From assembly GCA_041622995.1 (NCBI GenBank), contig JBFJXR010000001.1, positions 104,026 through 168,025 on the forward strand: a stretch of 64,000 nt of DNA, read 5' to 3'. The position numbers were made by a program, and so were the translations under genes. The notes under the pieces were generated by a model. That model searched no databases. It was given only the letters and a program-made list of their open reading frames with translations, and was not told the DNA's origin. The stretch is from Nevskiales bacterium (GTDB taxonomy: Bacteria > Pseudomonadota > Gammaproteobacteria > Nevskiales > CAJXLF01). How positions within the stretch are numbered: position 1 is the first letter of the stretch; every line of letters begins with the position of its first letter. Shown in pieces: positions 3,979 to 59,362 of the stretch.

Positions 3979-4199
3979 GCACCAGACTCCTATCTCCGGT
4001 TATCAATTCCAGGCATTTATCAAGTCTGGATCGAGAACCAATACAACGATTAACTCTGTGTAAACAATATTTTTTATTTGCGGCCAGCCCCGACAAAAAT
4101 ACCGGTGACGATCAGCAAACCGCATACAGCCCAAAATTATACCCGAATCTAAAAACCGACGGCCAACACCACAACCTGCCAAACGGCTGTTTTACCCTT

Positions 4200-42005: not shown

Positions 42006-42788
42006 CTAATCCGCAGAAACAACAAAGCCACCCGATTTGTCATCACGGGTAATCTTAAGCAGACCCGCCTTATTCATCGCCTCGACCAGCTCACTGAATG
42101 TACTGAAGCCGTGGTATGACTCGGTAAAACCCGGGCGGCGTCGCTTGATGGCCTGTTTAATCATGGACCCCCAGATCTTGTCATCTTCACGTTCAGAACG
42201 CAGAGCCTCGAAGGTTTCCAGCACCAGATCGAAGGCTTCCTGGGTTTTATCGTCAGGGGACTTTGCAGTCTTGGCTTTACTCTTGGCAGCAGGTTTACGC
42301 CGTGGTTTCTTGGTCGTACGTACCAGGTCATCGTAAAAGATGAATTCGTCGCAATTGGCCGTGAGCAGGTCTGAAGTGGAATTTTTCACACCCACCCCGA
42401 TGACCATTTTGTTGTTTTCCCTGAGTTTGCTCACCAGCGGCGAGAAATCGGAATCGCCGGAAATAATCACGAAGGTATCCACATGCGCCTTGGTGTAGCA
42501 GAGGTCCAGAGCATCAACCACCATACGGATGTCGGCGGAATTCTTGCCAGACTGCCTGACATGCGGAATATCAATCAGTTCAAACGCCGCTTCATGCATT
42601 GTTTTCTTGAATTTACTGTAACGCTCCCAGTCGGAATAGGCCTTTTTGACCACGATAGACCCTTTCAGCAACAGGCGCTCAAGCACCTTATTGATATCAA
42701 AGTCGTCGTATTTGGCGTCACGCACACCCAGTGCGACATTTTCGAAATCGCAAAAGAGCGCCATATTTGGAGATTTTTCTTTGTTCAT
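42006..42788 (-). CDS. NYN-domain (LabA-like) protein with C-terminal OST-HTH/LOTUS domain
   Basis: 260 aa. The NYN motifs are ALFCDFENV, KNSADIRMVVDA and ISGDSDFSPLV. A Lys-rich linker follows, then a C-terminal HTH-like module. Confidence 0.8.
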   Translation of the reverse strand: MNKEKSPNMALFCDFENVALGVRDAKYDDFDINKVLERLLLKGSIVVKKAYSDWERYSKFKKTMHEAAFELIDIPHVRQSGKNSADIRMVVDALDLCYTKAHVDTFVIISGDSDFSPLVSKLRENNKMVIGVGVKNSTSDLLTANCDEFIFYDDLVRTTKKPRRKPAAKSKAKTAKSPDDKTQEAFDLVLETFEALRSEREDDKIWGSMIKQAIKRRRPGFTESYHGFSTFSELVEAMNKAGLLKITRDDKSGGFVVSAD

Positions 42789-42858: not shown

Positions 42859-43722
42859 TTGTTCCCCTACAAACACAACTTTGTACTCAACCCGGAAATC
42901 CTAGATGACAGCCATGTCCGCTATGATCTGGATATAAATATCGAGCGCTGGCCCTGGCTGAAGCTTGCACCGGATCACCCGGTACTTATCGGGAAACACA
43001 GCTTTTTTATCGGCATAGGTTGTGGGTTCGACCTGCTCAAGCTCCCGGTTCAAACGGCTAGCGCCTTGACTAAAGTGATATGGAAAAACATGCCTGCATG
43101 CCTGCATCAAAAGCATGCAACCCGGGCCCTGGCAGAAATCTCCGACGAGGATGACAAGTTCTATTACGGCTGTGAACTGCTTAGTGCAGACGCGCAGGTC
43201 ATGCAGACAATGCAGGCTTGGGGTGTCGTGTTTCGCAAGCGTGATTACGGCAGCTGGCGTGACAGGATAAAAAATGCGCTGGAACGCACCCGCCCGCAGG
43301 ATTTCAACTTCGCTTCAGCAGAAACCGCCGGCGTAAATACTTCACAGGAATGTTTTGTCTCGCCGCTACATGAGAATCGCAAAGGCCTTTCCTGTTTCGC
43401 CTTGATAGATGCCAGAGCAGGGTTTGTGCCTTTGCATCCCTGGCATACAGGTACAGGTGACCATGCGACCGCCAGCCATTTACTGGACGTGGCTTATCAG
43501 GCGGCTCACATGGTGGGACATGCACAAGGCTGGTTATCAACCTCTCACACAGTGCATTGCATGGGCGGTGAGGCATTATTCAAAAAATATGTCGAACTGG
43601 GCACCCCATTTGAGATTACCTTGCGTAGCTGGAAGCCACTGGATAACGGGCGGGCACTGCGCTTTTCACTGTCACAGAACTCGGCTATCTGTGTGGATAT
43701 CCTGCTGGAACTGAATCAATAA
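42859..43722 (+). CDS. hypothetical protein (possible double hot-dog fold)
   Basis: 287-aa ORF with a TTG start; the first in-frame ATG is not until about codon 77. The C-terminal segment HTGTGDHATASHLLDVAYQ has the H-x13-[DE]-x3-Q spacing of the FabZ-type hot-dog active site. No confident family call. Confidence 0.5.
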   Translation: MFPYKHNFVLNPEILDDSHVRYDLDINIERWPWLKLAPDHPVLIGKHSFFIGIGCGFDLLKLPVQTASALTKVIWKNMPACLHQKHATRALAEISDEDDKFYYGCELLSADAQVMQTMQAWGVVFRKRDYGSWRDRIKNALERTRPQDFNFASAETAGVNTSQECFVSPLHENRKGLSCFALIDARAGFVPLHPWHTGTGDHATASHLLDVAYQAAHMVGHAQGWLSTSHTVHCMGGEALFKKYVELGTPFEITLRSWKPLDNGRALRFSLSQNSAICVDILLELNQ

Positions 43723-43724
43723 CT

Positions 43725-44651
43725 TCAGTGCTTATCGACAAACGCCAGGTAATGAGCAGCAGTATCCGCAGGTCTTTCCAGCATCGGCACGTGACCGGTA
43801 TCTTTCATGATAACCACTTCAGCATGTGGCAATAGCGGCCGCATGACATTGACTGAACTCACATCCAGCACACGATCGAATTCTCCCCACAAAATCAGTG
43901 CCGGATTATCAATATCGGCCAGCTTGCTTTCCAGCCCGGAGAAGCGGTCACTCTTATAAGAATCGAATATGTACTGATTGAATTCCGCATGATCCAGTGC
44001 CTTCTGTGCCAGCACGCCTTTCACCGGCCAGGGTACGAAGGGTTTCTTGTAAGAGACGAACTCTAAAAGGCCATCAAAATCCTCGACCGAGCCTACAACC
44101 AATGGATTACTTCCTTCATCCAGTGCCTTCTGCATATCGCTCTTGTCCGGTGCATTAATGCCGGCATTATTGAACAGCGCCATGGATAGCACCTGCCCCG
44201 GATATTTGTGTGTATACAGGGCTGCCAGATGCCCACCCATGGAATTACCCACAACGTGAAACTGCTCCAACTTCATCGCCGCCGCAAAACCATTCACACG
44301 ACCACGTTGCGGTGGCAGGGAATAATCCCAGTCCGCATGCCGGGCGGACTCGCCAAAGCCAGGCAGGTCAGGCGCAATGACGCGATAGCTGCCCGTCAGT
44401 GATTTTGAAAACCGTGTCCAGTTGTCCTTGTCGCCACCAAAACCATGCAGTAATAGCACCACTTCAGCATCGGCAGGCCCGCCCTCAAGGTAGTGCCAGG
44501 TTTCATCACCAATTACGATTGTTTTGTGACTCAGCCCACTGGCAGCACGCTCGGCATTCATGCCCAGTTTTGCCGTTTCTTCGGGATACAGCGCCATCAA
44601 TACGACCAGAATGGCGACAAGCCCCAACAGATGAAGAAATATTTTTTTCAT
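43725..44651 (-). CDS. secreted/membrane-anchored alpha/beta hydrolase
   Basis: 308 aa with an N-terminal hydrophobic signal, an HGFGG oxyanion motif and a GNSMGG nucleophile elbow. Confidence 0.8.
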   Translation of the reverse strand: MKKIFLHLLGLVAILVVLMALYPEETAKLGMNAERAASGLSHKTIVIGDETWHYLEGGPADAEVVLLLHGFGGDKDNWTRFSKSLTGSYRVIAPDLPGFGESARHADWDYSLPPQRGRVNGFAAAMKLEQFHVVGNSMGGHLAALYTHKYPGQVLSMALFNNAGINAPDKSDMQKALDEGSNPLVVGSVEDFDGLLEFVSYKKPFVPWPVKGVLAQKALDHAEFNQYIFDSYKSDRFSGLESKLADIDNPALILWGEFDRVLDVSSVNVMRPLLPHAEVVIMKDTGHVPMLERPADTAAHYLAFVDKH

Positions 44652-44672
44652 TTCAAGTACTCAATAGGTTTT

Positions 44673-46043
44673 TCAAATACCAGCGGCGGTTTCCAGGTCC
44701 GCCAGCGCCTGCTCCGTGTAATCCAGCAAGCGCTGCATACCCGGCACGGTACGGCGGCAGGCGGTATACCCGAAGCAGATACGATCGATATAACTGGTCA
44801 GCGTGATATTCAATGCCTGCCCATCGACCGGGATGGAGACCGGGTACATCTCATCCATTCTTGCGCCATTCCAGTACAGAGGTTTGGTTGGGCCCGGCAC
44901 ATTGGAAATGACCAGATTGAATATAGGCCGCACCTTATCTATGCCCAGGAAACTGGCAACCGGCATCGGCGATGAAATTGCCGCCGCATAGGACAGCTGC
45001 TCGACCCGGGACATTTGTCCGAGCTTCTCTTTCGCATGTTTGGTGGAAGCCACAATCGTTTCCAGTCTCTTGCCCGGGTCAGCAATTTGCGTGGCCAGAT
45101 TCGCGAGGATAATCGAAACCTGATTGCCTGCATCCGGGTTATCGGCAGAACGCACCGATACCGGCACCATGGAAATCAGGGGTTCATCCGGCAGTGCATT
45201 CTGCGAAATCAGGTACTCACGAAGTGCGCCAGCACACATCGCAAGCACTACATCATTCAGGGTTGCCCCGCTGGCCTTACCGACAGCCTTGATACGCGCC
45301 AGATCATAGGACTGTGCCGCAAAGCGACGCGGACTGGAAATCTTGACGTTGAACATAGTCGGCGGCGCCTGAAAGGGCGTGATATCAGTCGGATCTGACT
45401 TACTTGGCCTGACGATATCCCAGATTCCACGAGCCACACCTGGCACGATCCCGGAACTCTCCCGCAAGGAGTTTGCCATCATCACCAGGGGGTTGGCATC
45501 CTCAACCGGGGACAGGATACGTGGCGCTCTCGGTGGACGTTCCTTGGCCCAGAAGGGGGCATCGCCTCGCAGAGCAGGATCTTCACTCAGACCATTCATG
45601 GTGGCGCGCATCGCAGCCACACCATCAAACAGGGCATGATGGAGCTTGCCGTAAACGGCAATACGCCCATCCTCCAGCCCCTCGATAATATGCATCTCCC
45701 ACATGGGGTGACTGCGATCCATCAGGGTGCCATGCAATCTCGACACCAGGGAAAGCAGCTCACGTATCCGGCCCGGCCGAGGCAGGGATGAATGGCGGAA
45801 ATGGTGATCAAGGTCAAAGTGATCATCTTCAGCCCATTGCCAGCGTCCCATGCGAAACACCGGCCGCAGGTTATATGGCTCGACGGCCTGAGCATAACTG
45901 CGTGATTGCTCCACCAGTTCAGTCACAAAATCGGGGCCGGCATCCTCCGGCGGCGTGTACAAATGCAACCCTCCCACATGCATGGGCTGGCGTCTGCCTT
46001 CAATCCACAGAAATGCGGAGTCCTGCAAGGATAGTGATTTCAT
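44673..46043 (-). CDS. wax ester synthase/acyl-CoA:diacylglycerol acyltransferase (WS/DGAT)
   Basis: 456 aa with the catalytic HHxxxDG motif (KLHHALFDGVAA) and family-typical length and termini. Confidence 0.9.
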   Translation of the reverse strand: MKSLSLQDSAFLWIEGRRQPMHVGGLHLYTPPEDAGPDFVTELVEQSRSYAQAVEPYNLRPVFRMGRWQWAEDDHFDLDHHFRHSSLPRPGRIRELLSLVSRLHGTLMDRSHPMWEMHIIEGLEDGRIAVYGKLHHALFDGVAAMRATMNGLSEDPALRGDAPFWAKERPPRAPRILSPVEDANPLVMMANSLRESSGIVPGVARGIWDIVRPSKSDPTDITPFQAPPTMFNVKISSPRRFAAQSYDLARIKAVGKASGATLNDVVLAMCAGALREYLISQNALPDEPLISMVPVSVRSADNPDAGNQVSIILANLATQIADPGKRLETIVASTKHAKEKLGQMSRVEQLSYAAAISSPMPVASFLGIDKVRPIFNLVISNVPGPTKPLYWNGARMDEMYPVSIPVDGQALNITLTSYIDRICFGYTACRRTVPGMQRLLDYTEQALADLETAAGI

Positions 46044-46107
46044 TCCGGCTCCCGTTGTCTTTATTTACTCGGAAACGATAATGATGGCACAGTCGATTTA
46101 TTGTTGC

Positions 46108-46944
46108 TCAGGCCGCTTTCTGTTCGCGCTCTACTGCCCTGAGAAATCGCATGATTTCTGGCAGCATGCGTTCCGGGCGGGTTCGCAGTTCGAAAATGGA
46201 ATTGGCCATCATGAATTCTGCATTCGGTAGTTCATTTGCAAGAATCTTTGCATCTTCCAGATCATGCAACCAGTCGCGACCGTGGCCGATCACCAATGTA
46301 GGCATTGTGAGCTTCACTCGTTCACGCTTGGGAGGCACGACAGACCCCACCAGAACACCATGCAACACGCTGGCTATGGATTCCGGCTCTTGCGACAGTG
46401 CATTCATGCCACTTTCAAACAAGCCATTTTTGGGTCGCGGCATCATTCGCATACCCCGCGCAAACAAACGATATACCGGCGCTGCATATCGCACGGCCCC
46501 TAACAATGGCACCAGCATCATGGCTGCCGCAGGTACGGCACGCTCCATCACAGGCATCTCCAGTATCATCGCCTTCACACGATGGGGTGCCTGCACGGCA
46601 AACTGCAATGAAGTAATGGCACCCAATGACATGCCGCCAATGACTGCGGACTCGACCCCGAAGTAATCCAGCGTTACACCCACCTGCTCGGCAAAGAACT
46701 CCACCCGTAACTCCTTGGCATGCCGCGGCTTGTCGCTTTTGCCGTGTCCCAGAAGGTCGAGCAGCACCACACGATATCCCTTGCTGGCAAAGGCCAGTGC
46801 AAGATCCCTATTACAGGCGGCATCCAGCAGAATGCCATGAATCAGAATCATCAACGGCCCATCGGTAGGGCCGTGCGCCTCATAAGCCAAGCGATAATCT
46901 TCATAAGGAATGGTGCCCTTGTTGGCGAGCAGTCGTGTCGTCAT
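46108..46944 (-). CDS. alpha/beta hydrolase
   Basis: 278 aa with an IHGILL oxyanion region and a GMSLGA nucleophile elbow. Confidence 0.8.
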   Translation of the reverse strand: MTTRLLANKGTIPYEDYRLAYEAHGPTDGPLMILIHGILLDAACNRDLALAFASKGYRVVLLDLLGHGKSDKPRHAKELRVEFFAEQVGVTLDYFGVESAVIGGMSLGAITSLQFAVQAPHRVKAMILEMPVMERAVPAAAMMLVPLLGAVRYAAPVYRLFARGMRMMPRPKNGLFESGMNALSQEPESIASVLHGVLVGSVVPPKRERVKLTMPTLVIGHGRDWLHDLEDAKILANELPNAEFMMANSIFELRTRPERMLPEIMRFLRAVEREQKAA

Positions 46945-46996
46945 AGTTCAAATGTTGTGATGAATATCGGACAATGGTATCTATTGCTCCCCACCC

Positions 46997-47797
46997 TTGC
47001 CTACCTCAAAGAGCGGAAAAATGAATACAAAGCCAAACGTATTGATCACCGGCGCTGCTGCCGGCATTGGCAAGGCAACGGCCGAGCTTTTTGCCAGCAA
47101 TGGATGGTACGTCGGGCTTTTTGATGTAGACGTTGATGGCGTCTCTGCCTTACAGAAGCAACTTGGAGACGACTCTGCTCTGGCGGGCAGACTGGACGTC
47201 ACCAATCCGGATGACTGGCAATTGGCACTGGATGAATTCACTGCCTCGCACGGCGGAAAGCTTGACCTGCTGATCAACAATGCCGGGGTACTAACGACGG
47301 GGAATTTCGAAAGCATTGATCTTGGCAAACATCACGGCATGGTCGACATCAATTTCAAAGGCGTTATCAATGGCTGTTATCTGGCCTTTCCGTATTTGAA
47401 GCTGGCAGCAGGCGCTCGTGTCATCAATATTTCATCAGCCTCGGCTGTTTACGGCGCACCTATTTTTACGAGTTATTCAGCCACCAAGTTTGCAGTGCGC
47501 GGCCTCACCGAGGCTTTGAATCTGGAATGGCAAGACCACGACATCAGCGTCTCCGACATCATGCCGATTTTTGTGCAGTCCAATATGACCAGGGACATGC
47601 ATACCAAGAGTTCGGATGAAATGGGCATTAAGCTCACGCCACAGGATATTGCAAATACCGCATGGAAGGCCGCAAACCACAAGGGCTTTGCCAAGGTACA
47701 TTGGCCGGTAGGTGCAGGAACAATTCAACTCATGCTGGCGAGCCGCCTGCTGCCTACGTGGCTAATTCGCATAATTCTTCGAAAATTGAGTCTCTGA
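46997..47797 (+). CDS. short-chain dehydrogenase/reductase (SDR)
   Basis: 266 aa with the cofactor motif TGAAAGIGKA, an NNAG motif and the catalytic YSATK. Confidence 0.9.
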   Translation: MPTSKSGKMNTKPNVLITGAAAGIGKATAELFASNGWYVGLFDVDVDGVSALQKQLGDDSALAGRLDVTNPDDWQLALDEFTASHGGKLDLLINNAGVLTTGNFESIDLGKHHGMVDINFKGVINGCYLAFPYLKLAAGARVINISSASAVYGAPIFTSYSATKFAVRGLTEALNLEWQDHDISVSDIMPIFVQSNMTRDMHTKSSDEMGIKLTPQDIANTAWKAANHKGFAKVHWPVGAGTIQLMLASRLLPTWLIRIILRKLSL

Positions 47798-47811: not shown

Positions 47812-48927
47812 TCAGACGCCAGACTCTGCGGCGCTGTCTTTTAATCCATCAACACGCATCACGGCGATTGGTCGGTGAAAACCTTTTATCTCTTTATCAC
47901 CAAGCGACTCGTACTTTGCAATTTCTTCAACGCTGACGATGAACTTGAGCGGTGCCAGGATTTCGCCATGCTGGGCACTTGAACACATTCGCGCGGCCAG
48001 ATTAGTGACGGCCCCTATTGCCGCATACTGCCACCTGCCCGCAAAGCCGATTGCGCCTATGGTTGCGTAGCCTTTGGATAAACCAATACCCAAACCCAAA
48101 TCATACCCACGTTTTTTCCAGGTACTACATAGCAATTCAAAACGATCTCTCATTGCAATTGCAGTTAGCAACGCCTGCCTTTCAGGCTCATCAATTTCCA
48201 GCGGAGCATTAAAAAATATAGTCATGCTGTCCCCCGCAAAATGCTCGACCGTGCCCTGATGCGCTTCAACAATCTCACCCATTTCCGCATAAAACTCACC
48301 AAGCACACAGACGACGTCTTCAGGTTCAGCGGTTTCAGAAAAAGGCGTAAAACCCCGCAAATCAATCACACAAACAGTCACCTCCCTGCGCTTGGCTTTC
48401 AGTAGTGAATCTCCTCCTTCTGAAACAATCAATTCAGCTACTTTTTGTGGTAGAAAGTTTTTCAAGCTACCCAGACGCTGTAGTTCTGCAACCTGATCCT
48501 GTACACGTGATTCAAGTAGTTCATTCCACTCGACGTTTTCCCGATGCAAACGTTCAACGCGCAGTAAAGATCGTACTCGCGCCAACAATTCCTCACGATT
48601 AACAGGTTTGGTTAAAAATTCGTCAGCCCCTGCATCCAGCCCTTTAACACGCTCCTCTTCAGGACGTGCACCCGTCACAAGGATAATCGGTAACGCTCTG
48701 GTTTCCGTTCGCTCACGAATCCTTTGACAAACTTCATAGCCACTCAAACCTGGCATCACAACATCAAGCAACAATAAATTGGGTGGATTACTTTCGATTT
48801 GTTCCAGCGCCTCCTCACCACTGCGACTTACTGAAACATTAAATCCCTCTTCCGACAGCAAGGTACCCAGCAGGCGTAGATTTGAGGCCTCGTCATCAAC
48901 TACCAATATACGACTCTTCTCAGTCAT
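47812..48927 (-). CDS. response regulator with class III nucleotide (adenylate/guanylate-type) cyclase output domain
   Basis: 371 aa. The REC domain has DD, LLLLDVVMPGLSG and TKP. A coiled-coil linker follows. The cyclase domain has metal Asp residues (VIDLRGFT, AGDSM) and the transition-state motif TNLAARM. Confidence 0.88.
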   Translation of the reverse strand: MTEKSRILVVDDEASNLRLLGTLLSEEGFNVSVSRSGEEALEQIESNPPNLLLLDVVMPGLSGYEVCQRIRERTETRALPIILVTGARPEEERVKGLDAGADEFLTKPVNREELLARVRSLLRVERLHRENVEWNELLESRVQDQVAELQRLGSLKNFLPQKVAELIVSEGGDSLLKAKRREVTVCVIDLRGFTPFSETAEPEDVVCVLGEFYAEMGEIVEAHQGTVEHFAGDSMTIFFNAPLEIDEPERQALLTAIAMRDRFELLCSTWKKRGYDLGLGIGLSKGYATIGAIGFAGRWQYAAIGAVTNLAARMCSSAQHGEILAPLKFIVSVEEIAKYESLGDKEIKGFHRPIAVMRVDGLKDSAAESGV

Positions 48928-48935
48928 GATTCACC

Positions 48936-51900
48936 CTAGCTCAAACACTCGTTAAGCAGGTCAGCAGCGGTATCAAAATCAAATCCTCGAATAGCCACAG
49001 ACAACTTCTCCAGTGACTCTGGAGAAATTTTTTCTGCCAACGTTGGCTTCAAAGCATCAAATTTCTCCTGTGCGGTGAAGTCACTACTCATAACCAATGC
49101 CATTAATTCTGCTATCTGGCTGGAATACGCCTCCTCTGACAACACATCAGCTTTCGTTGCAACAGGGGTTTCATTGGGCAGAGCAGCCACAGACTCCCTT
49201 ACCTGTGATAATTGCCGCTCCATTTCAGCCAGCAATGGCATTAACTTATCCTCTTCGCCACTTTTCATGGCCATCTCAAGTAGCCGGGCAGTCTCAGATA
49301 ACTGATTACAACCGATATTGGCAGCCATCCCTTTTAGGGAATGAGCTTCCCTGATTGCATCCTCGGTTTTCCCTGATGACCACATTACAGTGATGCGATC
49401 ACTGGCATCTTTCTGGTCTTCGGCGAATTCAACCAGCAATTCCAGGAGCAATCGCTTTCTACCACCCAAGCGTAGCAGTGCCTCTTGCAACTCTATACCT
49501 GGAAGCTCGTCAGGCAACTCCGAAATCGCACCGTGGTCGACTTTTGTACTGACATCACTCATGTTTGCACCGTTTTCAGAAGGAGCCCACCTTGCAAGCA
49601 ATTCAAATAAAAGAGTTGAATCAATGGGCTTTGGAAGGAAATCATTCATACCAGAGGCCAAGGCCGATTCTCGATCCTGCTGCATCGCATTTGCGGTCAT
49701 GGCAATGATGGGTACGTTGCTAAACTGTTCCAATTGCCGGATGGCCCTGGTGGCCTGCAAACCATCCATTACAGGCATTTGCAGATCCATTAATACAGCG
49801 TCGAAAGTTTCTGACTGGACTTTTTCTACTGCTTGCTGGCCATCATTCGCCAATTCAACTTTAACCCCAACATCAGTCAGAACCTCTTTGGCCAGTCGCC
49901 GGTTAAGACCATTATCATCCACCACCAGCACATGCATTCCACGTAACTCAGGGGCATGTGTGTTTTCTGCCTGGCCTTCGGATAGCCCCTGTAATTGCTG
50001 ATGCGCATTGTCAGCCAGCCCGAAATCCACTGTGAAGCTGAATTCACTGCCTTTGCCGGGCTCACTTTGGACATCAATCTGACTACCCATTAACTCTATC
50101 AGCCGTTTGCATATCACCAGCCCCAGACCTGAGCCACCATACTTGCGTGATAGTGACTGATCACCCTGTGAGAATGGCGAGAAAAGACGTGAGCGCTGCT
50201 CATCCGTAATGCCAATTCCAGTGTCCTGCACTGTGAACCTTATTGAAATACCGTTTTGATTAGCTTTCACTAGCTCAATAATAAATTTCACATAACCTGT
50301 ATCCGTAAATTTCACGGAATTACCTATCAGGTTCATAAGCACCTGTTCGAGATGAGGCCCATCTCCAACCAGCAGGTCTGGAATGTCTTGTGCCCTTTCA
50401 ACTTCCATTGAAATGCCTTTGTTTACGGCTTCCGCACTCACCAGACTTGTGACCTGATCAATTACTGTTGAAAGTGAAAATGGTTCATTAATGAGGTGGA
50501 GAGCACCTGTTTCTATTCGCGTCAGATTGAGCACATCATCAAGTACCTTGAGCATTGACTCGGATGCCTTTTCAATACGACCAAGATGAGTAAGCCGCTC
50601 ATTCTCGGCACTACTTCCCAGTGCCAGTCTGGTAAATCCGGCAATGGCGTTCATTGGTGTCCTGAGCTCGTGACTCATTTTTGCCAGAAAATCAATTTTT
50701 GCCCTCGTTTCTGCCAACTCATGCCTATGTGCCAGACGTTCACGCTGACGACGTTCCCGATTGATCTGATCAGCCAGCCCCAGAGACACCAGCGTTACAA
50801 GAAAACACAAGCCAATATGTATGGCATAGGTCGTCAGGAATGTAATCGGCAACAAGCCATTAGTCTGCATCACCTTTGCCACAATGCCGACGACCAGAAC
50901 TCCCCAGACAAGCACATAAAAACGTGCCGTTCTATGGCCGGTCAGTGCCTGTGTCAATATGACAGCAGCTATCAGGACGGTAGTGATTGCCGCCACCATG
51001 ACCACCACAAAAATACTAATCTGAACAGACAGAAATATCGGCATAATGGCACACAGTACCGCTGCCGCCATTGCCATACCGAGCATCCTATCCAGTCTCG
51101 GTGAATATTTTTTCGTCTGTAATGACGTTCGTATGAATAAAGGGATAAACAAGCTACTCAGGGCTATAAATACCGTCAGGCTTTTGTTCACAAAGGCTGG
51201 TGATAGCCACCACATAAACGGAAAAGCAAAACCATCCAGACTCATTTGAGCCGCAGCGAGCCAAAAGATAAATATTATGTAATAAAGATAAGCGGCATCC
51301 CTTATGGTCAGGAAAATCAGAAAGTTGTAAATGATCATTACGGCAACAATGCCGTAAAACATGCCGTAGAGGAGATTCTCTATATTCGTCTTTTCGTAGA
51401 AAGCCTCCGCGGTCCATAATGCCAATGGCAACTGGTGCGAACCCTCAAGTTGAGCACGAATATATAATGTAATTTCGCTTCCAGGCTCAATATCAAGGGC
51501 AATTGCATAGTTACGATGGTTTATACCTGTTGAACCCGGTGGCCGGAGATCTCCACCACGCACGATTCGCAATCTCCCGGTAGCATCTGAAATATATACA
51601 TCTACATAATCCAGTGGCGGCCATGATATTTCCAGTATCCAGTTATTCTGTTTACTGTGATGTGGATTTTTCAATGAAAATCGATACCAGTATGCTGCCT
51701 GGGTAAAACCAAAGTTAAGACCCGTCACCCCGCTGGAGATAAAACTATTACTTAATGGTGGCTGGCTAACTTCTTCATAAACCATCTTCCCGGAGTCATC
51801 CCTTAGTACTTGAACCTGACTGCTCAGAACCAGTGAATGTAGCTCGGGATTAATCTCTATCGTCTGTGGTGAGGCAGCACTTGCCTGCATTAAACTATTC

Positions 51901-52016
51901 AGCAAAACGAGTGTGAATAACATGGCCTTAGGCAAATAGTTGGCCCTAGGCAATAAGCACCTCCTTATACGGAACATTTCACTCAGGAAAAAGGCCATGA
52001 AATCATTCGCAATCAA
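48936..52016 (-). CDS. 7TMR-DISM hybrid sensor histidine kinase (LadS-like: HisKA-HATPase-REC-Hpt)
   Basis: 1026 aa. A periplasmic domain (LNFGFTQAAYWYRFSLKNP) is followed by 7 TM segments. The H-box is LAKMSHELRTPMNA (His codon 50670-50672) and the G-box is GGSGLGL. REC has LMDLQMPVMDG, and Hpt has EAHSLKGMA (His codon 49341-49343). The TTG start at 52016 is uncertain; later Met codons are at 51998 and 51923. Confidence 0.9.
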   Translation of the reverse strand: MIANDFMAFFLSEMFRIRRCLLPRANYLPKAMLFTLVLLNSLMQASAASPQTIEINPELHSLVLSSQVQVLRDDSGKMVYEEVSQPPLSNSFISSGVTGLNFGFTQAAYWYRFSLKNPHHSKQNNWILEISWPPLDYVDVYISDATGRLRIVRGGDLRPPGSTGINHRNYAIALDIEPGSEITLYIRAQLEGSHQLPLALWTAEAFYEKTNIENLLYGMFYGIVAVMIIYNFLIFLTIRDAAYLYYIIFIFWLAAAQMSLDGFAFPFMWWLSPAFVNKSLTVFIALSSLFIPLFIRTSLQTKKYSPRLDRMLGMAMAAAVLCAIMPIFLSVQISIFVVVMVAAITTVLIAAVILTQALTGHRTARFYVLVWGVLVVGIVAKVMQTNGLLPITFLTTYAIHIGLCFLVTLVSLGLADQINRERRQRERLAHRHELAETRAKIDFLAKMSHELRTPMNAIAGFTRLALGSSAENERLTHLGRIEKASESMLKVLDDVLNLTRIETGALHLINEPFSLSTVIDQVTSLVSAEAVNKGISMEVERAQDIPDLLVGDGPHLEQVLMNLIGNSVKFTDTGYVKFIIELVKANQNGISIRFTVQDTGIGITDEQRSRLFSPFSQGDQSLSRKYGGSGLGLVICKRLIELMGSQIDVQSEPGKGSEFSFTVDFGLADNAHQQLQGLSEGQAENTHAPELRGMHVLVVDDNGLNRRLAKEVLTDVGVKVELANDGQQAVEKVQSETFDAVLMDLQMPVMDGLQATRAIRQLEQFSNVPIIAMTANAMQQDRESALASGMNDFLPKPIDSTLLFELLARWAPSENGANMSDVSTKVDHGAISELPDELPGIELQEALLRLGGRKRLLLELLVEFAEDQKDASDRITVMWSSGKTEDAIREAHSLKGMAANIGCNQLSETARLLEMAMKSGEEDKLMPLLAEMERQLSQVRESVAALPNETPVATKADVLSEEAYSSQIAELMALVMSSDFTAQEKFDALKPTLAEKISPESLEKLSVAIRGFDFDTAADLLNECLS

Positions 52017-55000
52017 GCATCGCCTTCTGACATCTCTGCCTGAACGTGATTATGCTCAGCTGATTTTGCCTTTAACCAATGCGAAATTGTCTCTATGAGC
52101 TTGGCTGCATCAATAGGCTTGGTCAGGAAGTCACTCATGCCCGCTTCCATACACTCATCCCGGTCACTCTGCATGGCATTGGCGGTCATCGCGATAACAG
52201 GGAGCAATTCACAGCCCGGCAGCTTTCTCAGGACACGGGTCGCCTCAAAACCGTCCATGACAGGCATTTGCACGTCCATTAACACCACGTCATACGTCTT
52301 CTGCTTAATGGCATCAATGGCTTCCTTGCCATTCTCCGCAGTATCCAGCAATACACCTACATCAGATAAGATTTCTCCCGCTAACCTTCGATTCAGTTCA
52401 TTGTCCTCAACAAGCAAAACGCGTACGCCTGTCAAATCTCCATAACTCTTGCATTCAGTGACTACCTTGGCCGCACTACTGCTTTTCTCATCGAACGACA
52501 ATATTGCTTCTTGCACAGTCTCCAGCAGCATAGACGGTTTAATGGGTTTTTCCAGATAGCTATTCGCTCCAGCAGCTACCGATGCCTCGACTAAATCCTC
52601 GCGCCCATGTGCCGTCATCAGGATAATCGCCAGATTCTGCTGGCTTAACTCGGCACGAATGAGCCGAGTTGCCTCAATGCCATCTAACTCGGGCATACGC
52701 CAATCCATCAGCACCGCATCAAAGGATTCGGATTTAAGCAATTCCAGTGCTTCTTTTGCACTGGAAACCATTGATGTTTTGAAACTCAACGACTCGAGCA
52801 GACGACTATAAACCTGGCGTGCGGCTGCATTGTCGTCGACCACTAACACACGCTTGCCACTTACTTCGCCCGCAAGTGGCTCTACCCCTTTGTTTTTACC
52901 CACACCAAGTTTGACTGAAAACCTGAAGGTACTCCCTACACCAGGCTGACTCTCCAGAGAAATTTCACCGCCCATCAATTCCACAAGTTGCTTGCAAATC
53001 GCCAGACCAAGACCGGTACCTCCATACTTTCTGGTCGTGGACTGATCCGCCTGATTGAATGGCCTGAACAGCTTCTGCTGCTGCTCCTCAGTCAGGCCTA
53101 TCCCCGAATCCCTGACCATAAAACCAATAACTGCATGATCATTCTCAACTGCCAATTGCTCAATGCCGACCTCGACCTCACCACTCTCGGTAAACTTCAA
53201 TGCATTACTGAGTAAATTCATGAGCACCTGTTCAAGCCTCAGCGGATCACCTACCAATGAAACAGGCAACTCGTAGGAACCAGGCACAATAAACTCAATA
53301 CCTTTGCTTGCCGCCTGAGATGAGAACAGATCTACCAGTTTGTCCAGGATTTGCTGCATTGAGAACTCACGAGACTCAAGCGTTAATTTTCCAGCTTCAA
53401 TCTTCGAAAGATCGAGAATGTCATTAATAATGTGTAGCAAGCTGTGCGAAGCAGTGGAGATATGCTGCAAATGCTCCTGTTTACGATCTACAGAATCACT
53501 CCTCAATGCAAGCTCGGTAAATCCGATAACAGCATTCATTGGTGTTCTTAGCTCATGGCTCATTTTGGCCAGAAACTCACTCTTGGTGGCCGTGGCTGCC
53601 TCAGCCACTTCGCGAGCACGCTCAAGCTTCTCTTTTTCCCGGCGTGCACTGATATCAGTCAGAATCCCGTCATTACCGATTGCACGACCATCCGCATCAA
53701 GAATTGTTCTTACTGACAAGGATCCCCAGAACACACTCCCATCCTTCCTGCGTAATTGCATCTGGTGGCTACTGATCTGACCATCTTCTCTGAGCGCCTC
53801 AACAATCGCTTCTCCATCCCTGGCATGCACTGATGTATCAAGTCTTAAATTGACTCCAGCAGCTATGAATTCCTCTGCTGAGGCGTAGCCAAGCATATTC
53901 GCCATAGCCGGATTGGCATTAATGCACTTACCCTTCCTGTCTGTCTGGAATATTCCTTCGAGAACGTTATTGACCATACGTTCATAACGCTCAAGATTGG
54001 TAATAGCCTGGCCACGGGCATTGAGTGCTTCCTCCTGTGCATCTATCTTTTCTTTGCGTTCAATATTAATCCTGTCTGCCAGCGCCAATGAAAGCAGAGT
54101 TACCGTCACCATTACGCCAATTTGCCATGCGTAAGCGGTTATAAAACTGGTCGGTAAAACACCGAATAACTCACTTACCTTTATCAGGATGCCAATGATA
54201 AACAAGGTCCAGGCCAGCACATAAAAACGTGCAATCCGGACACCTGCACGCAATGACATCAAACCACTGACAATAAACATGATTGCAGTCATTGCCCCCA
54301 GTCCCGCAATTGGCGGGACAACCGCGGCATAAGAAATAAAGAAGGCCGATACCCCCAGTAACCCTATCGCTGCAATCAATATATTGTTCACCCAATTTAT
54401 CTTTGGGAGGTGCAGATGTGTATGCAGGAAGTTTTTCGAAAACAAAAGCGAAAATATCAGCGTGAGGCCGACATTAATTGGCACTCCCAGGTTCACCCCT
54501 TGAGGTGATCCCAGAATAAATTCATGCAGGTATAAATGTGTAAACCCATTCAGGTTCATTTGCAGCAAGGCAAAGCTAACCAAAGTTGCAATGTAATATA
54601 TGTAGGCAACATCCCTGACAAAAGTAAATATACAAAGGTTGTACAACGCCATCACCAGCAACACGCCATAAAATATCCCGAAGCCGAGATTTTCACGTTC
54701 CGTTTTGTTGAAATAACTCTTTGCCGTCCACAATGAGATTGGAACCTGATGTGATCCTTCAGTTTTCACGCGTAAATGCAATTGAACCTGCTCACCGGGT
54801 TCAATTTTCAAAGGAAGTGCGTAATTTCTGTGGGAAAGAAGTGCTCTATTTGGCGACCTCTGATCACCTGTTCTGTAGAGCAGCGTTCTGCCCTTTTTAC
54901 TCACATAAATATCGACAATATCCAAAGGGGGGTATCCGAGTTCCAGCACCCACTCCGAATTCTCGCTTTTCCTGATTCGTGGATGCTTTAACTGAAATCG

Positions 55001-55291
55001 ATACCAATAAGTATCTGTCGTGAACCCGAAGTTAAGATTGTTTTCAGTATTTATCGAAAACTGATTGGCCTTACCTTTACGAATATCCTTATATTCATAA
55101 TTGCCCTCAACATCACGCAACAATTCGACTTTTGAGTCAAGCCGTAATGACTCTATTGTGCTGTTAATGTTGATTAAATTGCCTGAAGCGGCAAGTAAAT
55201 GACTGCTGTAGCCATAAATAATCATGGCCCAAATCATCAGTACACGTTTCCTGATCGCGGAACCCGACATACCTACACCCCCGTTCTCCAA
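52013..55291 (-). CDS. 7TMR-DISM hybrid sensor histidine kinase (RetS-like: PAS-HisKA-HATPase-REC-REC, no Hpt)
   Basis: 1092 aa. A periplasmic domain (LNFGFTTDTYWYRFQLKHP) is followed by 7 TM segments and a PAS-like segment. The H-box is LAKMSHELRTPMNA (His codon 53555-53557) and the G-box is GGTGLGL. The two REC domains have LMDWRMPELDG and LMDVQMPVMDG. The probable true start is the ATG at 55270. Confidence 0.9.
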   Translation of the reverse strand: MENGGVGMSGSAIRKRVLMIWAMIIYGYSSHLLAASGNLININSTIESLRLDSKVELLRDVEGNYEYKDIRKGKANQFSINTENNLNFGFTTDTYWYRFQLKHPRIRKSENSEWVLELGYPPLDIVDIYVSKKGRTLLYRTGDQRSPNRALLSHRNYALPLKIEPGEQVQLHLRVKTEGSHQVPISLWTAKSYFNKTERENLGFGIFYGVLLVMALYNLCIFTFVRDVAYIYYIATLVSFALLQMNLNGFTHLYLHEFILGSPQGVNLGVPINVGLTLIFSLLFSKNFLHTHLHLPKINWVNNILIAAIGLLGVSAFFISYAAVVPPIAGLGAMTAIMFIVSGLMSLRAGVRIARFYVLAWTLFIIGILIKVSELFGVLPTSFITAYAWQIGVMVTVTLLSLALADRINIERKEKIDAQEEALNARGQAITNLERYERMVNNVLEGIFQTDRKGKCINANPAMANMLGYASAEEFIAAGVNLRLDTSVHARDGEAIVEALREDGQISSHQMQLRRKDGSVFWGSLSVRTILDADGRAIGNDGILTDISARREKEKLERAREVAEAATATKSEFLAKMSHELRTPMNAVIGFTELALRSDSVDRKQEHLQHISTASHSLLHIINDILDLSKIEAGKLTLESREFSMQQILDKLVDLFSSQAASKGIEFIVPGSYELPVSLVGDPLRLEQVLMNLLSNALKFTESGEVEVGIEQLAVENDHAVIGFMVRDSGIGLTEEQQQKLFRPFNQADQSTTRKYGGTGLGLAICKQLVELMGGEISLESQPGVGSTFRFSVKLGVGKNKGVEPLAGEVSGKRVLVVDDNAAARQVYSRLLESLSFKTSMVSSAKEALELLKSESFDAVLMDWRMPELDGIEATRLIRAELSQQNLAIILMTAHGREDLVEASVAAGANSYLEKPIKPSMLLETVQEAILSFDEKSSSAAKVVTECKSYGDLTGVRVLLVEDNELNRRLAGEILSDVGVLLDTAENGKEAIDAIKQKTYDVVLMDVQMPVMDGFEATRVLRKLPGCELLPVIAMTANAMQSDRDECMEAGMSDFLTKPIDAAKLIETISHWLKAKSAEHNHVQAEMSEGDA

Positions 55292-55433: not shown

Positions 55434-56414
55434 CTAGTCCCCACCAGTGCCTTTTGAAGTCTTGCCAGACTCTAGCAGCAACTGTTCAATGCGCTGATCC
55501 TTTTCTTCCCAGAGATTCTGGATCCAGTCCTGAATTCGTTTCCTGAACACCATGTCCTCGCCATAGTTGCCATGAAAAAATTCGTCTGGAATTTCTATCT
55601 GTCTGACGTCGACGATCACACGAGCCACCCTGCCTGAAATCATATCCCAGAATTCCCGAGCCCCCTCAGGATAGACAACGGTAATATCAAGCAGCTTGTG
55701 CAGGCGCGAACCCATGACTGACATGGCGAATGCAAAACCGCCTGACTTCGGCAGCAGCAGATGCTTATAGGGCGATTCCTGCCGTTCATGTTTCGCCTGG
55801 GTAAAACGTGTGCCTTCCAGGTAGTTCAGAATCATGACGGGAATATGCTGAAACTTTTCACAGGCAGCCCGTGTCGTTGCCAGATCCTTGCCCTTGAGCT
55901 CCGGTTTCTTGGCCACCTGCTCCGGCGTATATCGCTTCATGAACGGGAAATCCAGACCCCACCAGGCGAGCCCCAGAATCGGCACCCATATCAGTTCCTG
56001 CTTCATAAAGAACTTGAAAAATGGCGCACGCATGTCGAAGGCCTTCATGACCGCAGGAATGTCGTTATAACTCTGGTGATTTGAAACGGCCATATACTGC
56101 CCATTGCGGTCCAGCTTATCGACACCGCGTATATCCCATTCCACTGCTACCATCACGTCTAGGATTTTCACATTTGCCGACGCCCATAGCTGAGCAAAAA
56201 CGGCGATCCAGTGCGACACAGCAATACGTGCCCGTCCACGTGTAATCAACTTGATAAAAATCAGAAGATACACAGGTACTGCCCAGAGCATCAGGTTAAT
56301 TAACATTATCGAAAATGTGATCACGCCCAACAGGGGCGCAGGCAGGAATTGCTTCATGGCACCGGGTAGAACTCGATCAGTGAATGACAGGGTCAAGATT
56401 ATACGACCTGCCAC
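55434..56414 (-). CDS. lysophospholipid/glycerolipid acyltransferase (PlsC/YihG-like)
   Basis: 326 aa with an N-terminal TM region, an HX4D motif (NHQSYNDIP) and an EGTR motif (LEGTRF). The track uses a GTG start at 56414; an alternative ATG is at 56357. Confidence 0.8.
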   Translation of the reverse strand: MAGRIILTLSFTDRVLPGAMKQFLPAPLLGVITFSIMLINLMLWAVPVYLLIFIKLITRGRARIAVSHWIAVFAQLWASANVKILDVMVAVEWDIRGVDKLDRNGQYMAVSNHQSYNDIPAVMKAFDMRAPFFKFFMKQELIWVPILGLAWWGLDFPFMKRYTPEQVAKKPELKGKDLATTRAACEKFQHIPVMILNYLEGTRFTQAKHERQESPYKHLLLPKSGGFAFAMSVMGSRLHKLLDITVVYPEGAREFWDMISGRVARVIVDVRQIEIPDEFFHGNYGEDMVFRKRIQDWIQNLWEEKDQRIEQLLLESGKTSKGTGGD

Positions 56415-56512
56415 AGAGGTGAAAGTCAGGCACAGGTAAAGTTTGTTACCTGAAACAGGATATTTAGATCGAGCAGTGGCAGACTACATAAAAATTTAAG
56501 GTCTTACATCCT

Positions 56513-57391
56513 ATGCTCGCTGCCATTCTCAGAGTCGCACTCCGGCTATTTGCAAAACCCTTTCTGGCACCAAGGTTTTCAGTTGCCTTTCAGCGCTGGT
56601 GGACAAATATGCTCATGCTCCCCAACCTAAATGCCCGTGGTACCAGCTTTGACCCTGTTGTTCTGAATGGCATACCCGCACGACTGATCGCTAATAAAGG
56701 CTCTACTGAGAAAACAATTCTTTATCTGCACGGAGGCGCCTACATATTGGGCAACCCCAAGGGGCACCGTGGACTGTGCTCGCATCTGGCGAAGTTCAGC
56801 AATCAGAAAATTTATTCGCTCGATTACCGACTCGCACCCGAGCATGTCTATCCTGCAGCGTTGGAAGACGCACTTGCTGCCTATCAACATCTACTGGATC
56901 AGGGCATAGAAGCGAGCAACATTTCTCTGGCGGGTGACTCGGCAGGCGCTGGACTTGCATTAAGTACTACTTTGAATATTCGTGACCGCAGCCTGCCGAT
57001 GCCCGCCAGACTCTTTTTAATTTCACCCTGGGCGGATATGACATTAAGCGGCGACAGCATCAAGACAAAAGCCAAGACTGATCCGATGATCCGGGAAGAC
57101 TGGGCGCAGAGTTGCGGCGAGATGTATTTGGGAGCGACTGCAGCCAGTCACCCGGATTGTTCACCACTTTTTGCAAACCTGGACAATTTGCCGCCCACAC
57201 TCATTCACGTCGGCAGCGAAGAAATATTACTGGATGACTCGCTACGGCTGACAGAAAAGCTCAAGGCAGGTGGTAATGAAGTAACGCTGAGGGTTTTCGA
57301 ATCCTACTGGCACGATTTTCAGCTACAGGCGGGCACTTTGCCCATGGCCAATGAATCCCTGCAGGAGGCGGCTGTTTTTTTGAATCGCTAG
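56513..57391 (+). CDS. alpha/beta hydrolase fold-3 esterase/lipase (HSL family)
   Basis: 292 aa with an HGG oxyanion motif (LHGGAY) and the nucleophile elbow GDSAGAG. Confidence 0.85.
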   Translation: MLAAILRVALRLFAKPFLAPRFSVAFQRWWTNMLMLPNLNARGTSFDPVVLNGIPARLIANKGSTEKTILYLHGGAYILGNPKGHRGLCSHLAKFSNQKIYSLDYRLAPEHVYPAALEDALAAYQHLLDQGIEASNISLAGDSAGAGLALSTTLNIRDRSLPMPARLFLISPWADMTLSGDSIKTKAKTDPMIREDWAQSCGEMYLGATAASHPDCSPLFANLDNLPPTLIHVGSEEILLDDSLRLTEKLKAGGNEVTLRVFESYWHDFQLQAGTLPMANESLQEAAVFLNR

Positions 57392-57395
57392 ATGT

Positions 57396-58640
57396 TCAGG
57401 CAGTAATATCTTCAGCGGCCCGTTGCTGCAAGGCACGCTTCACCGCTCGATCGGCTTCGCTCTCGACATGCTCACCTGATTTGGAGTCCGAGCGCTTACT
57501 GAGCCATTCAGAGCTCAACTTCCAAACAGCCTTCTCGGCTTTGCTGCCCAGAATTACACCCATATGCCCACCGGGTGAGATAACAAACTGCTTGTCCTTA
57601 CTCGAAACCAGCTCAACAATCTTGTGCGCAATCTCCGGCGGCACAAGGATGTCCGTTTCCCCGGCAAAGGCGAGGAAATCTGAAGTGATGGCTGTGAGAT
57701 CTGCAACCTCCCCTCCAATCTCGATCTGCCCTTCAGCCAGGTTGTTATCGACGGCCATCTTCACCACCATGTCCTGAATGACGCCGCCCGGATAGAGCAG
57801 CATATTGTTCAGATAATCCGAGGTGGTGGTGTAGCTCTCCACGAATTCTCTATCCCATAGTCGCGTCACCAAATCCCAGTAGGTAGTTACACTGCCGATG
57901 GGGTCGGTCATCTTGAAACTTAGCGTCGTCATCCAGCTTGGCGCTGAAAGCCAAGAAGGATTGAGGCTATGCAGCTTGAAGTTACTGAATTTGCGAATGA
58001 GCTTGGCGGGCGTATTGATCATGGCCGCTGAACGGGCCACGGCACCACCACCGCGTAAATCTATCGGGCTGGCGACCGTCACGATGTTTTTAATATCAGG
58101 ATCTTTGGCAATACCGGCATGCATCAGAATCAGCAGGCCACCCATGCACCAACCCATAAGAGAGACCTCCCGGCTACCCGAATGCAACCGTACCTCTTCA
58201 ATCGCCTTGCCCAGCATATCGTGAGCGTAATCCTTGAGATTAAGATGGGCATGACGTTTTTCCGGCTTGCCCCAATCCACCAGATAGGTGTGATATCCAC
58301 TGGCCGCCATATAGCGAGCAAGACTGCGTGTAGGCATCAGATCGAATGTCTCGGTGGTCACGCCCAATGGTGGCACCAGAATAAGCGGCACGCTCTTTCT
58401 CTTGGTGACCACTGGCATCTGCGTGCCATCGCTCAAATCAATTGAAGTCTCGTGCGGCAAAGGATAAAACCGCAATGCCATCGGGTCGCCGGTATAGATA
58501 GTCTCGTAAGGAGTCATGCCGGACTTGACCAGAATCTCCCTCAGGAAAAGCCAGTCGAAGGCATTGCTTGCCGCCGAGGCGGCTCGCTCGTTAAGCGCCA
58601 AAGCCTGATCAATTACATTACGTGCCAGTCCGGAAGCCAT
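57396..58640 (-). CDS. PhaC-like alpha/beta enzyme with Cys nucleophile (PHA synthase-like)
   Basis: 414 aa with a G-x-C-x-G-G box (MGWCMGGL), a PhaC-like PLILVPP...DWGKP region, and candidate triad Asp (GETDILVP) and His (PGGHMGV). Confidence 0.65.
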   Translation of the reverse strand: MASGLARNVIDQALALNERAASAASNAFDWLFLREILVKSGMTPYETIYTGDPMALRFYPLPHETSIDLSDGTQMPVVTKRKSVPLILVPPLGVTTETFDLMPTRSLARYMAASGYHTYLVDWGKPEKRHAHLNLKDYAHDMLGKAIEEVRLHSGSREVSLMGWCMGGLLILMHAGIAKDPDIKNIVTVASPIDLRGGGAVARSAAMINTPAKLIRKFSNFKLHSLNPSWLSAPSWMTTLSFKMTDPIGSVTTYWDLVTRLWDREFVESYTTTSDYLNNMLLYPGGVIQDMVVKMAVDNNLAEGQIEIGGEVADLTAITSDFLAFAGETDILVPPEIAHKIVELVSSKDKQFVISPGGHMGVILGSKAEKAVWKLSSEWLSKRSDSKSGEHVESEADRAVKRALQQRAAEDITA

Positions 58641-58704
58641 ATATTTGTCCTAGTAAAAAATTGAGAACCCCCCGCAAGATTTCGTATTTTACCCTTTCAT
58701 TGAC

Positions 58705-59160
58705 TCAGGCGTATTCAGCCTGAATACGTTCAATAAACCTGTCGATCAGTTTTGCGAAATACCCTCGAATGAAAGGCTTGGCGGGTGCCCGCAGCAGCAT
58801 CGGCACATCCACTTCAATCGTGCCGGCGATGTCGAGTTTTAATACCGCCTTGTTACCGTCCTGTACAGCACAGAAATGCCCGCCAATCTCGGCATTGCCC
58901 TGTGTTGTGACAGGGAAAAGCGTCACCACACGGTTTGCAGCGTCGATTTCAAACCGCGTCACCACCTGCAGCTCATAAGTCATGCCCGCAACGTGAATTG
59001 GCTCGATATCCCATAGCCATTCTCCATCTCCCTGATCGGTAAAGGCCCTTAATTTGGGAAAATGCGACATGGTTGCAGGAAGATCACTCAACAACTCAAA
59101 TAATTCAGATGCCTCCCCTTCTATGTGGGCATTACGTACCAGATCTACCTTTGCTTTCAT
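58705..59160 (-). CDS. hypothetical protein, SRPBCC/START-like
   Basis: 151-aa ORF. Size and the alternating beta/helix pattern with a long C-terminal helix fit SRPBCC lipid-binding folds. The call is weak. Confidence 0.5.
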   Translation of the reverse strand: MKAKVDLVRNAHIEGEASELFELLSDLPATMSHFPKLRAFTDQGDGEWLWDIEPIHVAGMTYELQVVTRFEIDAANRVVTLFPVTTQGNAEIGGHFCAVQDGNKAVLKLDIAGTIEVDVPMLLRAPAKPFIRGYFAKLIDRFIERIQAEYA

Positions 59161-59246
59161 ACGCTCTCATTCCTGATTTCAGATGTGTCACTTTTATGTA
59201 AAAAGGCTAATTCACGGGCATTATTCCCTATCAGGCGAATAAAGAC

Positions 59247-59272
59247 TATAATAGAGGAAAGATTTCTTTCCT
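59247..59272 (+). promoter_or_regulatory. candidate -10 box plus palindromic operator upstream of the acyl-CoA dehydrogenase gene
   Basis: TATAAT at 59247-59252 is followed immediately by AGGAAAGA-TT-TCTTTCCT (59255-59272, 8-bp perfect arms). Confidence 0.35.
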
Positions 59273-59362
59273 GAATTCTACAATTGAAACCTCGACCCCG
59301 CATCCGCATAGGTCTACTCTGCATGTCTGCGGTCGTCTTCACATTATTAGGAGTGCTCTGGC

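Follow-up and report, generated by a model that had tools for sequence, protein, structure and literature searches.

The 64,000-nucleotide stretch analysed here (the window) comes from contig JBFJXR010000001.1 of a Nevskiales bacterium (assembly GCA_041622995.1) and carries, at 47812..48927 on the minus strand, an open reading frame (ORF) for a 371-aa response regulator, in which Pfam recognises a receiver (REC) domain and, behind a helical linker, a class III nucleotidyl cyclase domain. It closes a compact run of three genes on the same strand, the two before it encoding the hybrid histidine kinases HK1 and HK2, and the identical protein (P0001) occurs in public assemblies. The protein belongs to both the class III cyclase superfamily and the response-regulator family, and all testable defining features of the two are present. 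It thus combines an ordinary architecture with a clade-wide, uncharacterised variant of the base pocket.

The receiver domain (residues 7-119, 48571..48909, minus strand as for all coordinates of this gene; Response_reg PF00072, 106.7 bits) has the receiver domain of PleD as its top match in the PDB (E ~1e-26). Its active site, consisting of D11, D12, D55, T85 and K107, is intact in the query and in all 120 relatives compared with it, and the phospho-acceptor Asp55 is encoded at 48763..48765. The linker comprises residues 120-178 (48394..48570), and DSSP assigned helices 111-156, 161-170 and 173-176 to this region of an AlphaFold2 model. Helix 111-156 exits the receiver domain and is unbroken up to its end; a helix break follows at Pro160, which is invariant in the 26 closest orthologues, and the short helix 161-170 with the motif NFLPQKVAEL directly precedes the first catalytic strand. 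This short helix resembles, by analogy, the transducer element of cyclases, and the layout as a whole corresponds to the coiled coil with transducer element found ahead of other class III cores; in Cya2 a transducer-type helix stands in front of the cyclase core (PMC5995499).

The catalytic domain (residues 180-349, 47881..48390) matches PF00211 (Guanylate_cyc) with 54 bits against a cut-off of 21.9. The initial annotation dealt with 47812..48390, i.e., residues 180-371 and the stop codon (the C-terminal 192 codons), and had found by eye both metal-binding Asp residues, the transition-state Asn and Arg, and a His/Ala pair at the positions that specify the base. Read directly from the codons, all of these residues are in place. 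The first metal-binding Asp is Asp189 (48361..48363) in VIDLRGFT (residues 187-194), and the second is Asp233 (48229..48231) in the AGDSM part of VEHFAGDSM (residues 227-235). GAVTNLAARM (residues 305-314) contains NLAAR (47989..48003), which runs from Asn309 (48001..48003) to Arg313 (47989..47991), the transition-state residues. All four residues are invariant in 121 of 121 sequences, namely the query and its 120 relatives. The canonical code used by annotation takes Lys with Asp or Thr as the mark of ATP use, and Glu with Cys or Gly as that of GTP use. At the first of these positions, Lys in adenylate and Glu in guanylate cyclases, the regulator has His229 (codon CAT, 48241..48243), and at the second, Asp/Thr in adenylate and Cys/Gly/Ser in guanylate cyclases, it has Ala302 (48022..48024), the last residue of Gln300-Tyr301-Ala302 (48022..48030) within QYAAIG (residues 300-305).

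Since a residue identity and not a statistical pattern is concerned here, chance is irrelevant and the register of the alignment is the sole question. The cyclase half was searched by phmmer against all PDB sequences, and around both specificity motifs the alignments are ungapped with top posterior confidence. In the match to Pseudomonas aeruginosa CyaB (3r5g, E 3e-27), tveHfagd of the query faces tidKfvgd and qyAaig faces dyTiig; the corresponding motifs are tvdKfvgd and dfTaig in Spirulina CyaC (1wc0), and tidEfmgd and kyGvvg in the Synechocystis guanylate cyclase Cya2 (2w01). D189 and D233 align with the metal-binding Asp residues of CyaB, Cya2 and CyaC, and N309 and R313 are aligned as well. 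The register therefore holds: His229 stands where the solved enzymes have Lys or Glu, and Ala302 where they have Thr or Gly. The AlphaFold2 model of the whole protein, built on 63 relatives, has a mean predicted local distance difference test score of 91.7, and according to Foldseek its cyclase half superposes best on CyaB (template-modelling (TM) score 0.91, root-mean-square deviation 1.7 Å), then on Cya2 and CyaC, the TM scores to the three ranging from 0.84 to 0.91. The by-eye register is thus upheld by the phmmer alignments and by the model, and the invariant catalytic residues together with the predicted fold, which is that of solved class IIIb cyclases, bear out the earlier judgement that the enzyme is probably active. 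Where the Lys of adenylate cyclases or the Glu of guanylate cyclases was looked for, four residues before the second metal-binding Asp, His229 was found, and the residue behind the conserved Tyr/Phe, which is Asp in class IIIa and Thr/Ser in class IIIb adenylate cyclases, is Ala302. Failing both canonical codes lowers the confidence in the product label, not in the mechanism.

Judged from its nearest relatives, the cyclase domain is class IIIb-like. The catalytic domain of CyaB, a class IIIb enzyme, is the best match both in sequence (~31% identity) and in structure; it shares with the query the metal-binding Asp, the Asn and Arg, the DxRGFT and FxGD motifs, and the homodimeric class III fold, and differs by its Lys/Thr pair. 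Control of CyaB lies with a MASE2 membrane domain at its N-terminus, whereas the query has a receiver domain. Cya2 (2w01; E488K variant 6fht) has the same class IIIb scaffold and, like the query, a small second residue (Gly), but it carries Glu for GTP, or Lys for ATP in E488K, where the query has His, and it is coupled to a CHASE2 sensor. The bicarbonate-responsive class IIIb enzyme CyaC (1wc0/1wc1, TM score ~0.85) agrees with the query in the catalytic residues but has Lys/Thr instead of His/Ala. If a response to bicarbonate depends on the Lys, it is not expected with His at this position.

Thousands of REC-cyclase proteins came out of a search over 5.8 billion proteins, and the best 120 of them were tallied together with the query to give the 121 sequences counted here. 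Position 229 is Arg in 102 of them, His in 9, Lys in 5, Ala in 3, and Ser and Tyr in one each, and position 302 is Gly in 87, Ala in 29, Ser in 4 and Thr in one. Glu229 occurs in none of these 121 close relatives; it was seen in two distant REC-cyclase homologues (L033 and L036). With only the cyclase domain as query, 1.84 billion cluster representatives were searched exhaustively by HMMER; 66,314 clusters reached E <= 1e-3, and for 721 the match was as good as E <= 1e-30. The 150 best 50%-identity clusters have mostly Arg (74) or His (61) at position 229, followed by Gln (9), Ser (2), Tyr (2) and Lys (1); at position 302 they have Ala (62), Gly (49), Thr (19) or Ser (18). On this comparative evidence, the missing Lys defines a large clade, in which His/Ala is one common state and by no means a lesion of this regulator gene. 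The initial annotation was right to call the pair non-canonical, but the pair is not peculiar to the 371-aa regulator; a very large clade is characterised by the missing Lys.

In the 26 closest orthologues (alignment A1, 57-73% identity), Gln300-Tyr301 is invariant and followed by Ala, Ser or Thr, while position 229 takes six states (H, R, S, A, K and Y; entropy 2.1 bits) within a nearly invariant E-x-F-x-G-D motif. A larger, more distant group combines Arg229 with Asp300 and Gly302. When parsimony changes were counted per site on a tree built by neighbour joining from 52 cyclase domains, there were 10 at site 229, the median for the domain, against zero at D189, R191, F230, D233, Y301, N309 and R313, so it is free of the strict constraint seen at catalytic sites. 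Inside subclades the residue is fairly stable (R, A, K and H groups), for which shared ancestry alone would suffice. Sensor domains in 102 relatives include GAF (28), 7TMR-DISM (17), REC (15), HAMP (6), PAS (5) and cNMP_binding (2); one and the same pocket type on so many sensor domains is what one would see with a working output module. Cultured carriers are Sinorhizobium mexicanum, one plasmid of which encodes a REC-cyclase (Arg/Ala) along with a REC protein and a GAF kinase, and Rhizobium johnstonii 3841, with a HAMP-cyclase (Asn/Thr) on pRL11. A scan of contigs with receiver-derived patterns yielded mostly PleD-like regulators below rank 35 and no orthologue with more than 53% identity.

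Some family members have lost catalytic residues. L027 from Solirubrobacter soli has Ala for the first metal-binding Asp and Thr for the Asn, and in L028 the first Asp is replaced by Val and the Asn by Gln, with Pro at position 229. Four of the 50%-identity clusters also show such losses, and several clusters carry Ile for the Asn. To judge by these residues, such members are probably inactive or regulatory paralogues.

Both kinases upstream of the cyclase gene are of the 7TMR-DISM type. HK2 (48936..52016, minus strand), with the Pfam domains 7TMR-DISMED2, 7TMR-DISM_7TM, HisKA, HATPase_c, REC and HPt, lies upstream of the cyclase gene and ends 8 nt from it, and the histidine motif HSLKG of the HPt domain is present in its translation. 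HK1 (52013..55291, minus strand) overlaps HK2 by 4 nt and consists of 7TMR-DISMED2, 7TM, PAS, HisKA, HATPase_c and two REC domains, with no HPt domain. The two are paralogous, being ~40% identical across the sensor and kinase parts. From this domain content, HK2 is likely the phosphodonor of the cyclase regulator via its HPt domain. Scans for promoters and terminators of the three-gene operon gave nothing above shuffled expectation. The G+C content is 0.45-0.48 over 48-56 kb of the window, compared with 0.50-0.55 on both flanks, a drop that hints at a joint acquisition of the three genes as one module.

The pairing with 7TMR-DISM sensors recurs elsewhere. The orthologue P0006 is encoded downstream of four hybrid kinases, two of which are 7TMR-DISM proteins, and the genes for P0020 and P0018 each overlap by 4 nt with the preceding gene, which encodes a 7TMR-DISM-PAS-kinase-REC-HPt protein, while P0033 of the Arg/Gly group comes after a dCache-GAF kinase and a single-domain REC protein. 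Outside the REC family, the closest cyclase domains (60-67% identity) belong to direct 7TMR-DISMED2-7TM-cyclase fusions, with the pocket H-Q-A and once S-Q-A; fusions of the 7TMR-DISM-cyclase type are the public proteins P0125, P0126, P0128-P0132, P0138 and P0140, all from outside the window. In the 52-domain tree the query clusters with these fusions and not with the R-Q-A REC-cyclases, which indicates domain shuffling within one cyclase subclade. The operon structure and the direct fusion thus tie this cyclase subtype to 7TMR-DISM sensing independently twice.

We consider it probable that a 7TMR-DISM phosphorelay has this response regulator as its output, with cyclic AMP (cAMP) as the most likely product. 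One or both of the tandem hybrid kinases would sense a periplasmic or membrane signal, and the phosphate would pass from His to Asp, then to the His of the HPt domain of HK2 and finally to Asp55 of the receiver domain; a His-Asp-His-Asp relay ending at Asp55 suggests itself, given that the receiver active site is complete and HK2 supplies the HPt domain. Phosphorylation would then repack the helical dimer, in that helix 111-156 and the transducer-like helix 161-170 alter the pairing of the two cyclase domains, and would so set the geometry of the catalytic homodimer. The phosphate route, the activation by dimer rearrangement and the product are all inferred, and dimer repacking is the most likely control mechanism of the regulator. 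The same logic of a receiver, a helical linker and a dimerising nucleotide cyclase is found in WspR (3bre) and PleD (1w25), and the whole-chain model compares with WspR at a TM score of 0.43. The output of those proteins is a GGDEF domain making cyclic di-GMP, whereas that of the query is a class III cyclase (PF00211), expected to make a cyclic mononucleotide. An identity as a diguanylate cyclase of the PleD/WspR type was rejected, as the PDB matches to such proteins come from the receiver domain and linker only and there is no GGDEF match in Pfam.

As to the nucleotide, the initial annotation held that the substrate cannot be read from the sequence, and the comparison with Cya2 agrees with this. 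Wild-type Cya2 (Glu/Gly) is a specific guanylate cyclase and its E488K variant (Lys/Gly) a specific adenylate cyclase (PMC5995499). As the first position alone switches the specificity of Cya2, Ala302 is uninformative, and His229, which matches neither Lys nor Glu, leaves the choice undecided. Ala302 falls within the set Cys, Ser, Thr, His, Ala or Gly found second in guanylate cyclases (PMC4215837), and a small residue likewise allows ATP use in Cya2 E488K (PMC5995499). The several products listed in the initial annotation are indeed possible, but they are not equally open, since the comparative context tilts toward cAMP. We lean to cAMP because Glu229 is absent from the 121 close relatives, while the cited guanylate cyclases all have Glu (PMC4215837); because the nearest solved structure is that of the adenylate cyclase CyaB; and because a Lys229 orthologue shares the operon type and lies beside a Crp-family gene. 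Five orthologues with 59-61% identity have Lys229/Ala302, and Lys next to a small second residue is also what the specific adenylate cyclase Cya2 E488K has. One of the five, P0020, is encoded in an operon of the same type, with an adjacent divergent Crp-family gene; in its product the phosphate-binding cassette (FGEM...ARTA) is intact. Within ~4 kb of relatives with the pockets His/Ala (L021 and L019), Arg/Gly (L004) and Arg/Ala (L030) there are likewise Crp-like genes, with FGE...R(S/T)A cassettes (FGE...PRSAS); E. coli CRP was the reference of this cassette comparison. The Crp-family genes near REC-cyclases, with intact cassettes for binding the cyclic-nucleotide phosphate, lie at 4078..4800 in L021, convergent with the cyclase gene and 14 nt from it, at 1780..2433 in L004, 9119..10048 in L019, 2189..2833 in L030 and 3753..4436 in L086. 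Crp-family neighbours thus span the pocket types His/Ala, Arg/Gly, Arg/Ala and Lys/Ala, and their products are candidate cognate receptors of the nucleotide of this clade. Altogether, sequence comparison makes cAMP the probable main product of the 371-aa cyclase, possibly with a looser base discrimination than in canonical enzymes.

Several points weigh against cAMP. The known codes use Lys as a donor or Glu as an acceptor, and His is neither of these. An incomplete literature search found no assayed member of the Arg/His clade, so that the product is inferred, and with the same incomplete coverage no characterised REC-cyclase or 7TMR-DISM cyclase of the Arg/His type was found. Among the ORFs of the 64-kb window no cyclic-nucleotide receptor was detected with one Crp-like query, which distant domains could escape. 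The AlphaFold2 model is a monomer, and the pocket across the dimer lies outside it. The Crp-family neighbours do not discriminate, because receptors of this family can also answer cyclic GMP (cGMP), as does Clr of Sinorhizobium meliloti, which responds to cGMP and cAMP (PMC10127613). Receptors such as Clr would also suit a guanylate or dual-specificity purine cyclase, in which a pocket with no charged selector takes GTP as well as or better than ATP. Such an enzyme would accord with the permitted Ala302, and Cya2, a guanylate cyclase with Gly as its second specificity residue, ranks second among the solved structures in closeness to the query. We nevertheless regard it as unlikely, given that Glu is first in all cited guanylate cyclases but absent from position 229 of the 121 close relatives, the distant homologues L033 and L036 having it, and that the Lys-bearing orthologues share the same operon type.

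Less likely still is a pyrimidine cyclic nucleotide (cyclic CMP or cyclic UMP) as an ordinary signal outside phage defence, to which we give little credence. The class III-type, CTP-specific EaPycC needs F100, R142 and Q144 and has its metal-binding Asp at 102 and 146 (PMC11224242), which also counts against cAMP, as R142 stands four residues before the second Asp, like His229, and the spacing of the two Asp is 44 in both proteins; this equivalence comes from residue numbering, not from an alignment. Arg at the Lys-equivalent position is moreover what most of the clade has. However, the residue evidence for EaPycC comes from a triple-alanine mutant only, and AnPycC uses UTP yet retains K104 (PMC11224242), so that position 229 does not predict the substrate among Pycsar cyclases. 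The PADLOC PycC profiles match the cyclase domain with 55 bits, which barely differs from the 54 bits of the generic Pfam model, whereas the CyaB match reaches 99 bits, and the match to BcPycC (7r65), a uridylate cyclase of solved structure, has an E of only 1.6. The cyclase gene adjoins no gene for a PycTM or PycTIR effector; around it are genes for histidine kinases, hydrolases, WS/DGAT and a short-chain dehydrogenase, and the protein comes with a sensory receiver domain and an operon of kinases, not with a defence island. The shared superfamily and the two metal-binding Asp leave a superfamily-level likeness to PycC, and membership of the Pycsar family was therefore rejected; a functional analogy is kept at low probability. 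About as improbable, if marginally less so, is a cyclase domain with little or no activity, the protein then serving the 7TMR-DISM phosphorelay mainly as a phosphate sink or through protein-protein regulation. Several characterised adenylate cyclases become much less active when the substrate Lys is lost, and the distant members L027 and L028 and the Ile-for-Asn clusters lack catalytic residues. A dead enzyme is not expected, though, with zero changes at the metal-binding Asp, Asn and Arg against 10 at an average site, and the pocket type is coupled to GAF, 7TMR-DISM, HAMP, PAS and REC sensors. Mycobacterial Rv1900c (Asn/Asp) and Rv0386 (Gln/Asn) give a precedent for Lys-less class III enzymes that are still adenylate cyclases, sometimes with a GTP side activity; they differ from the query in their substitutions, subclass and regulatory domains, and are not close to it.

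The signalling operon is surrounded by lipid and wax-ester genes at 43725..47797 and 55434..61183, among them those for a wax ester synthase/diacylglycerol acyltransferase (WS/DGAT, 44673..46043), a short-chain dehydrogenase (46997..47797), an acyltransferase (55434..56414), an acyl-CoA dehydrogenase (59363..61183) and four alpha/beta-hydrolases. Lipid-gene neighbourhoods were also observed in L083, L090 and L093, with a WS/DGAT gene ~7 kb from the orthologue P0006; P0018 is adjoined by an alpha/beta-hydrolase gene and P0002 by a short-chain dehydrogenase gene. The lipid-gene setting could be a regulatory target, or it could merely reflect common ancestry of the region. Farther away, a 260-aa protein with NYN ribonuclease and OST-HTH/LOTUS RNA-binding domains is encoded at 42006..42788 (minus strand), and nothing in Pfam matches the adjoining ORF of 287 aa (42859..43722). 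A diphosphate-dependent phosphofructokinase (NF010675, 640 bits) is encoded at 30302..31588 (plus strand) in an otherwise ordinary housekeeping stretch with rpoN, a gene of the phosphotransferase system enzyme I family (ptsP-type), mgtE, pmbA, mpl, murA and hisD, a gene content resembling that of a gammaproteobacterial chromosome.

Bacterial class III cyclases that break the two-residue code are already familiar to specialists, but the code is silent for the whole Arg/His clade, which is very large and environmentally widespread and comprises at least several hundred 50%-identity clusters with GAF, 7TMR-DISM, REC, HAMP and PAS sensors. We think it rather doubtful that this clade replaced Lys because its product differs from plain cAMP, be it cGMP, a pyrimidine cyclic nucleotide or a mixed output. 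If it did, the operon would represent a housekeeping, non-defence pathway of a non-canonical nucleotide under two-component control. If the product is simply cAMP, the first specificity position may be His, Arg, Ala or Ser with no change of product. The existence of pyrimidine cyclases in the same superfamily and the size of the clade make it worthwhile to ask what the Lys-less sensory cyclases produce, and the locus offers a genetic handle on 7TMR-DISM sensors.

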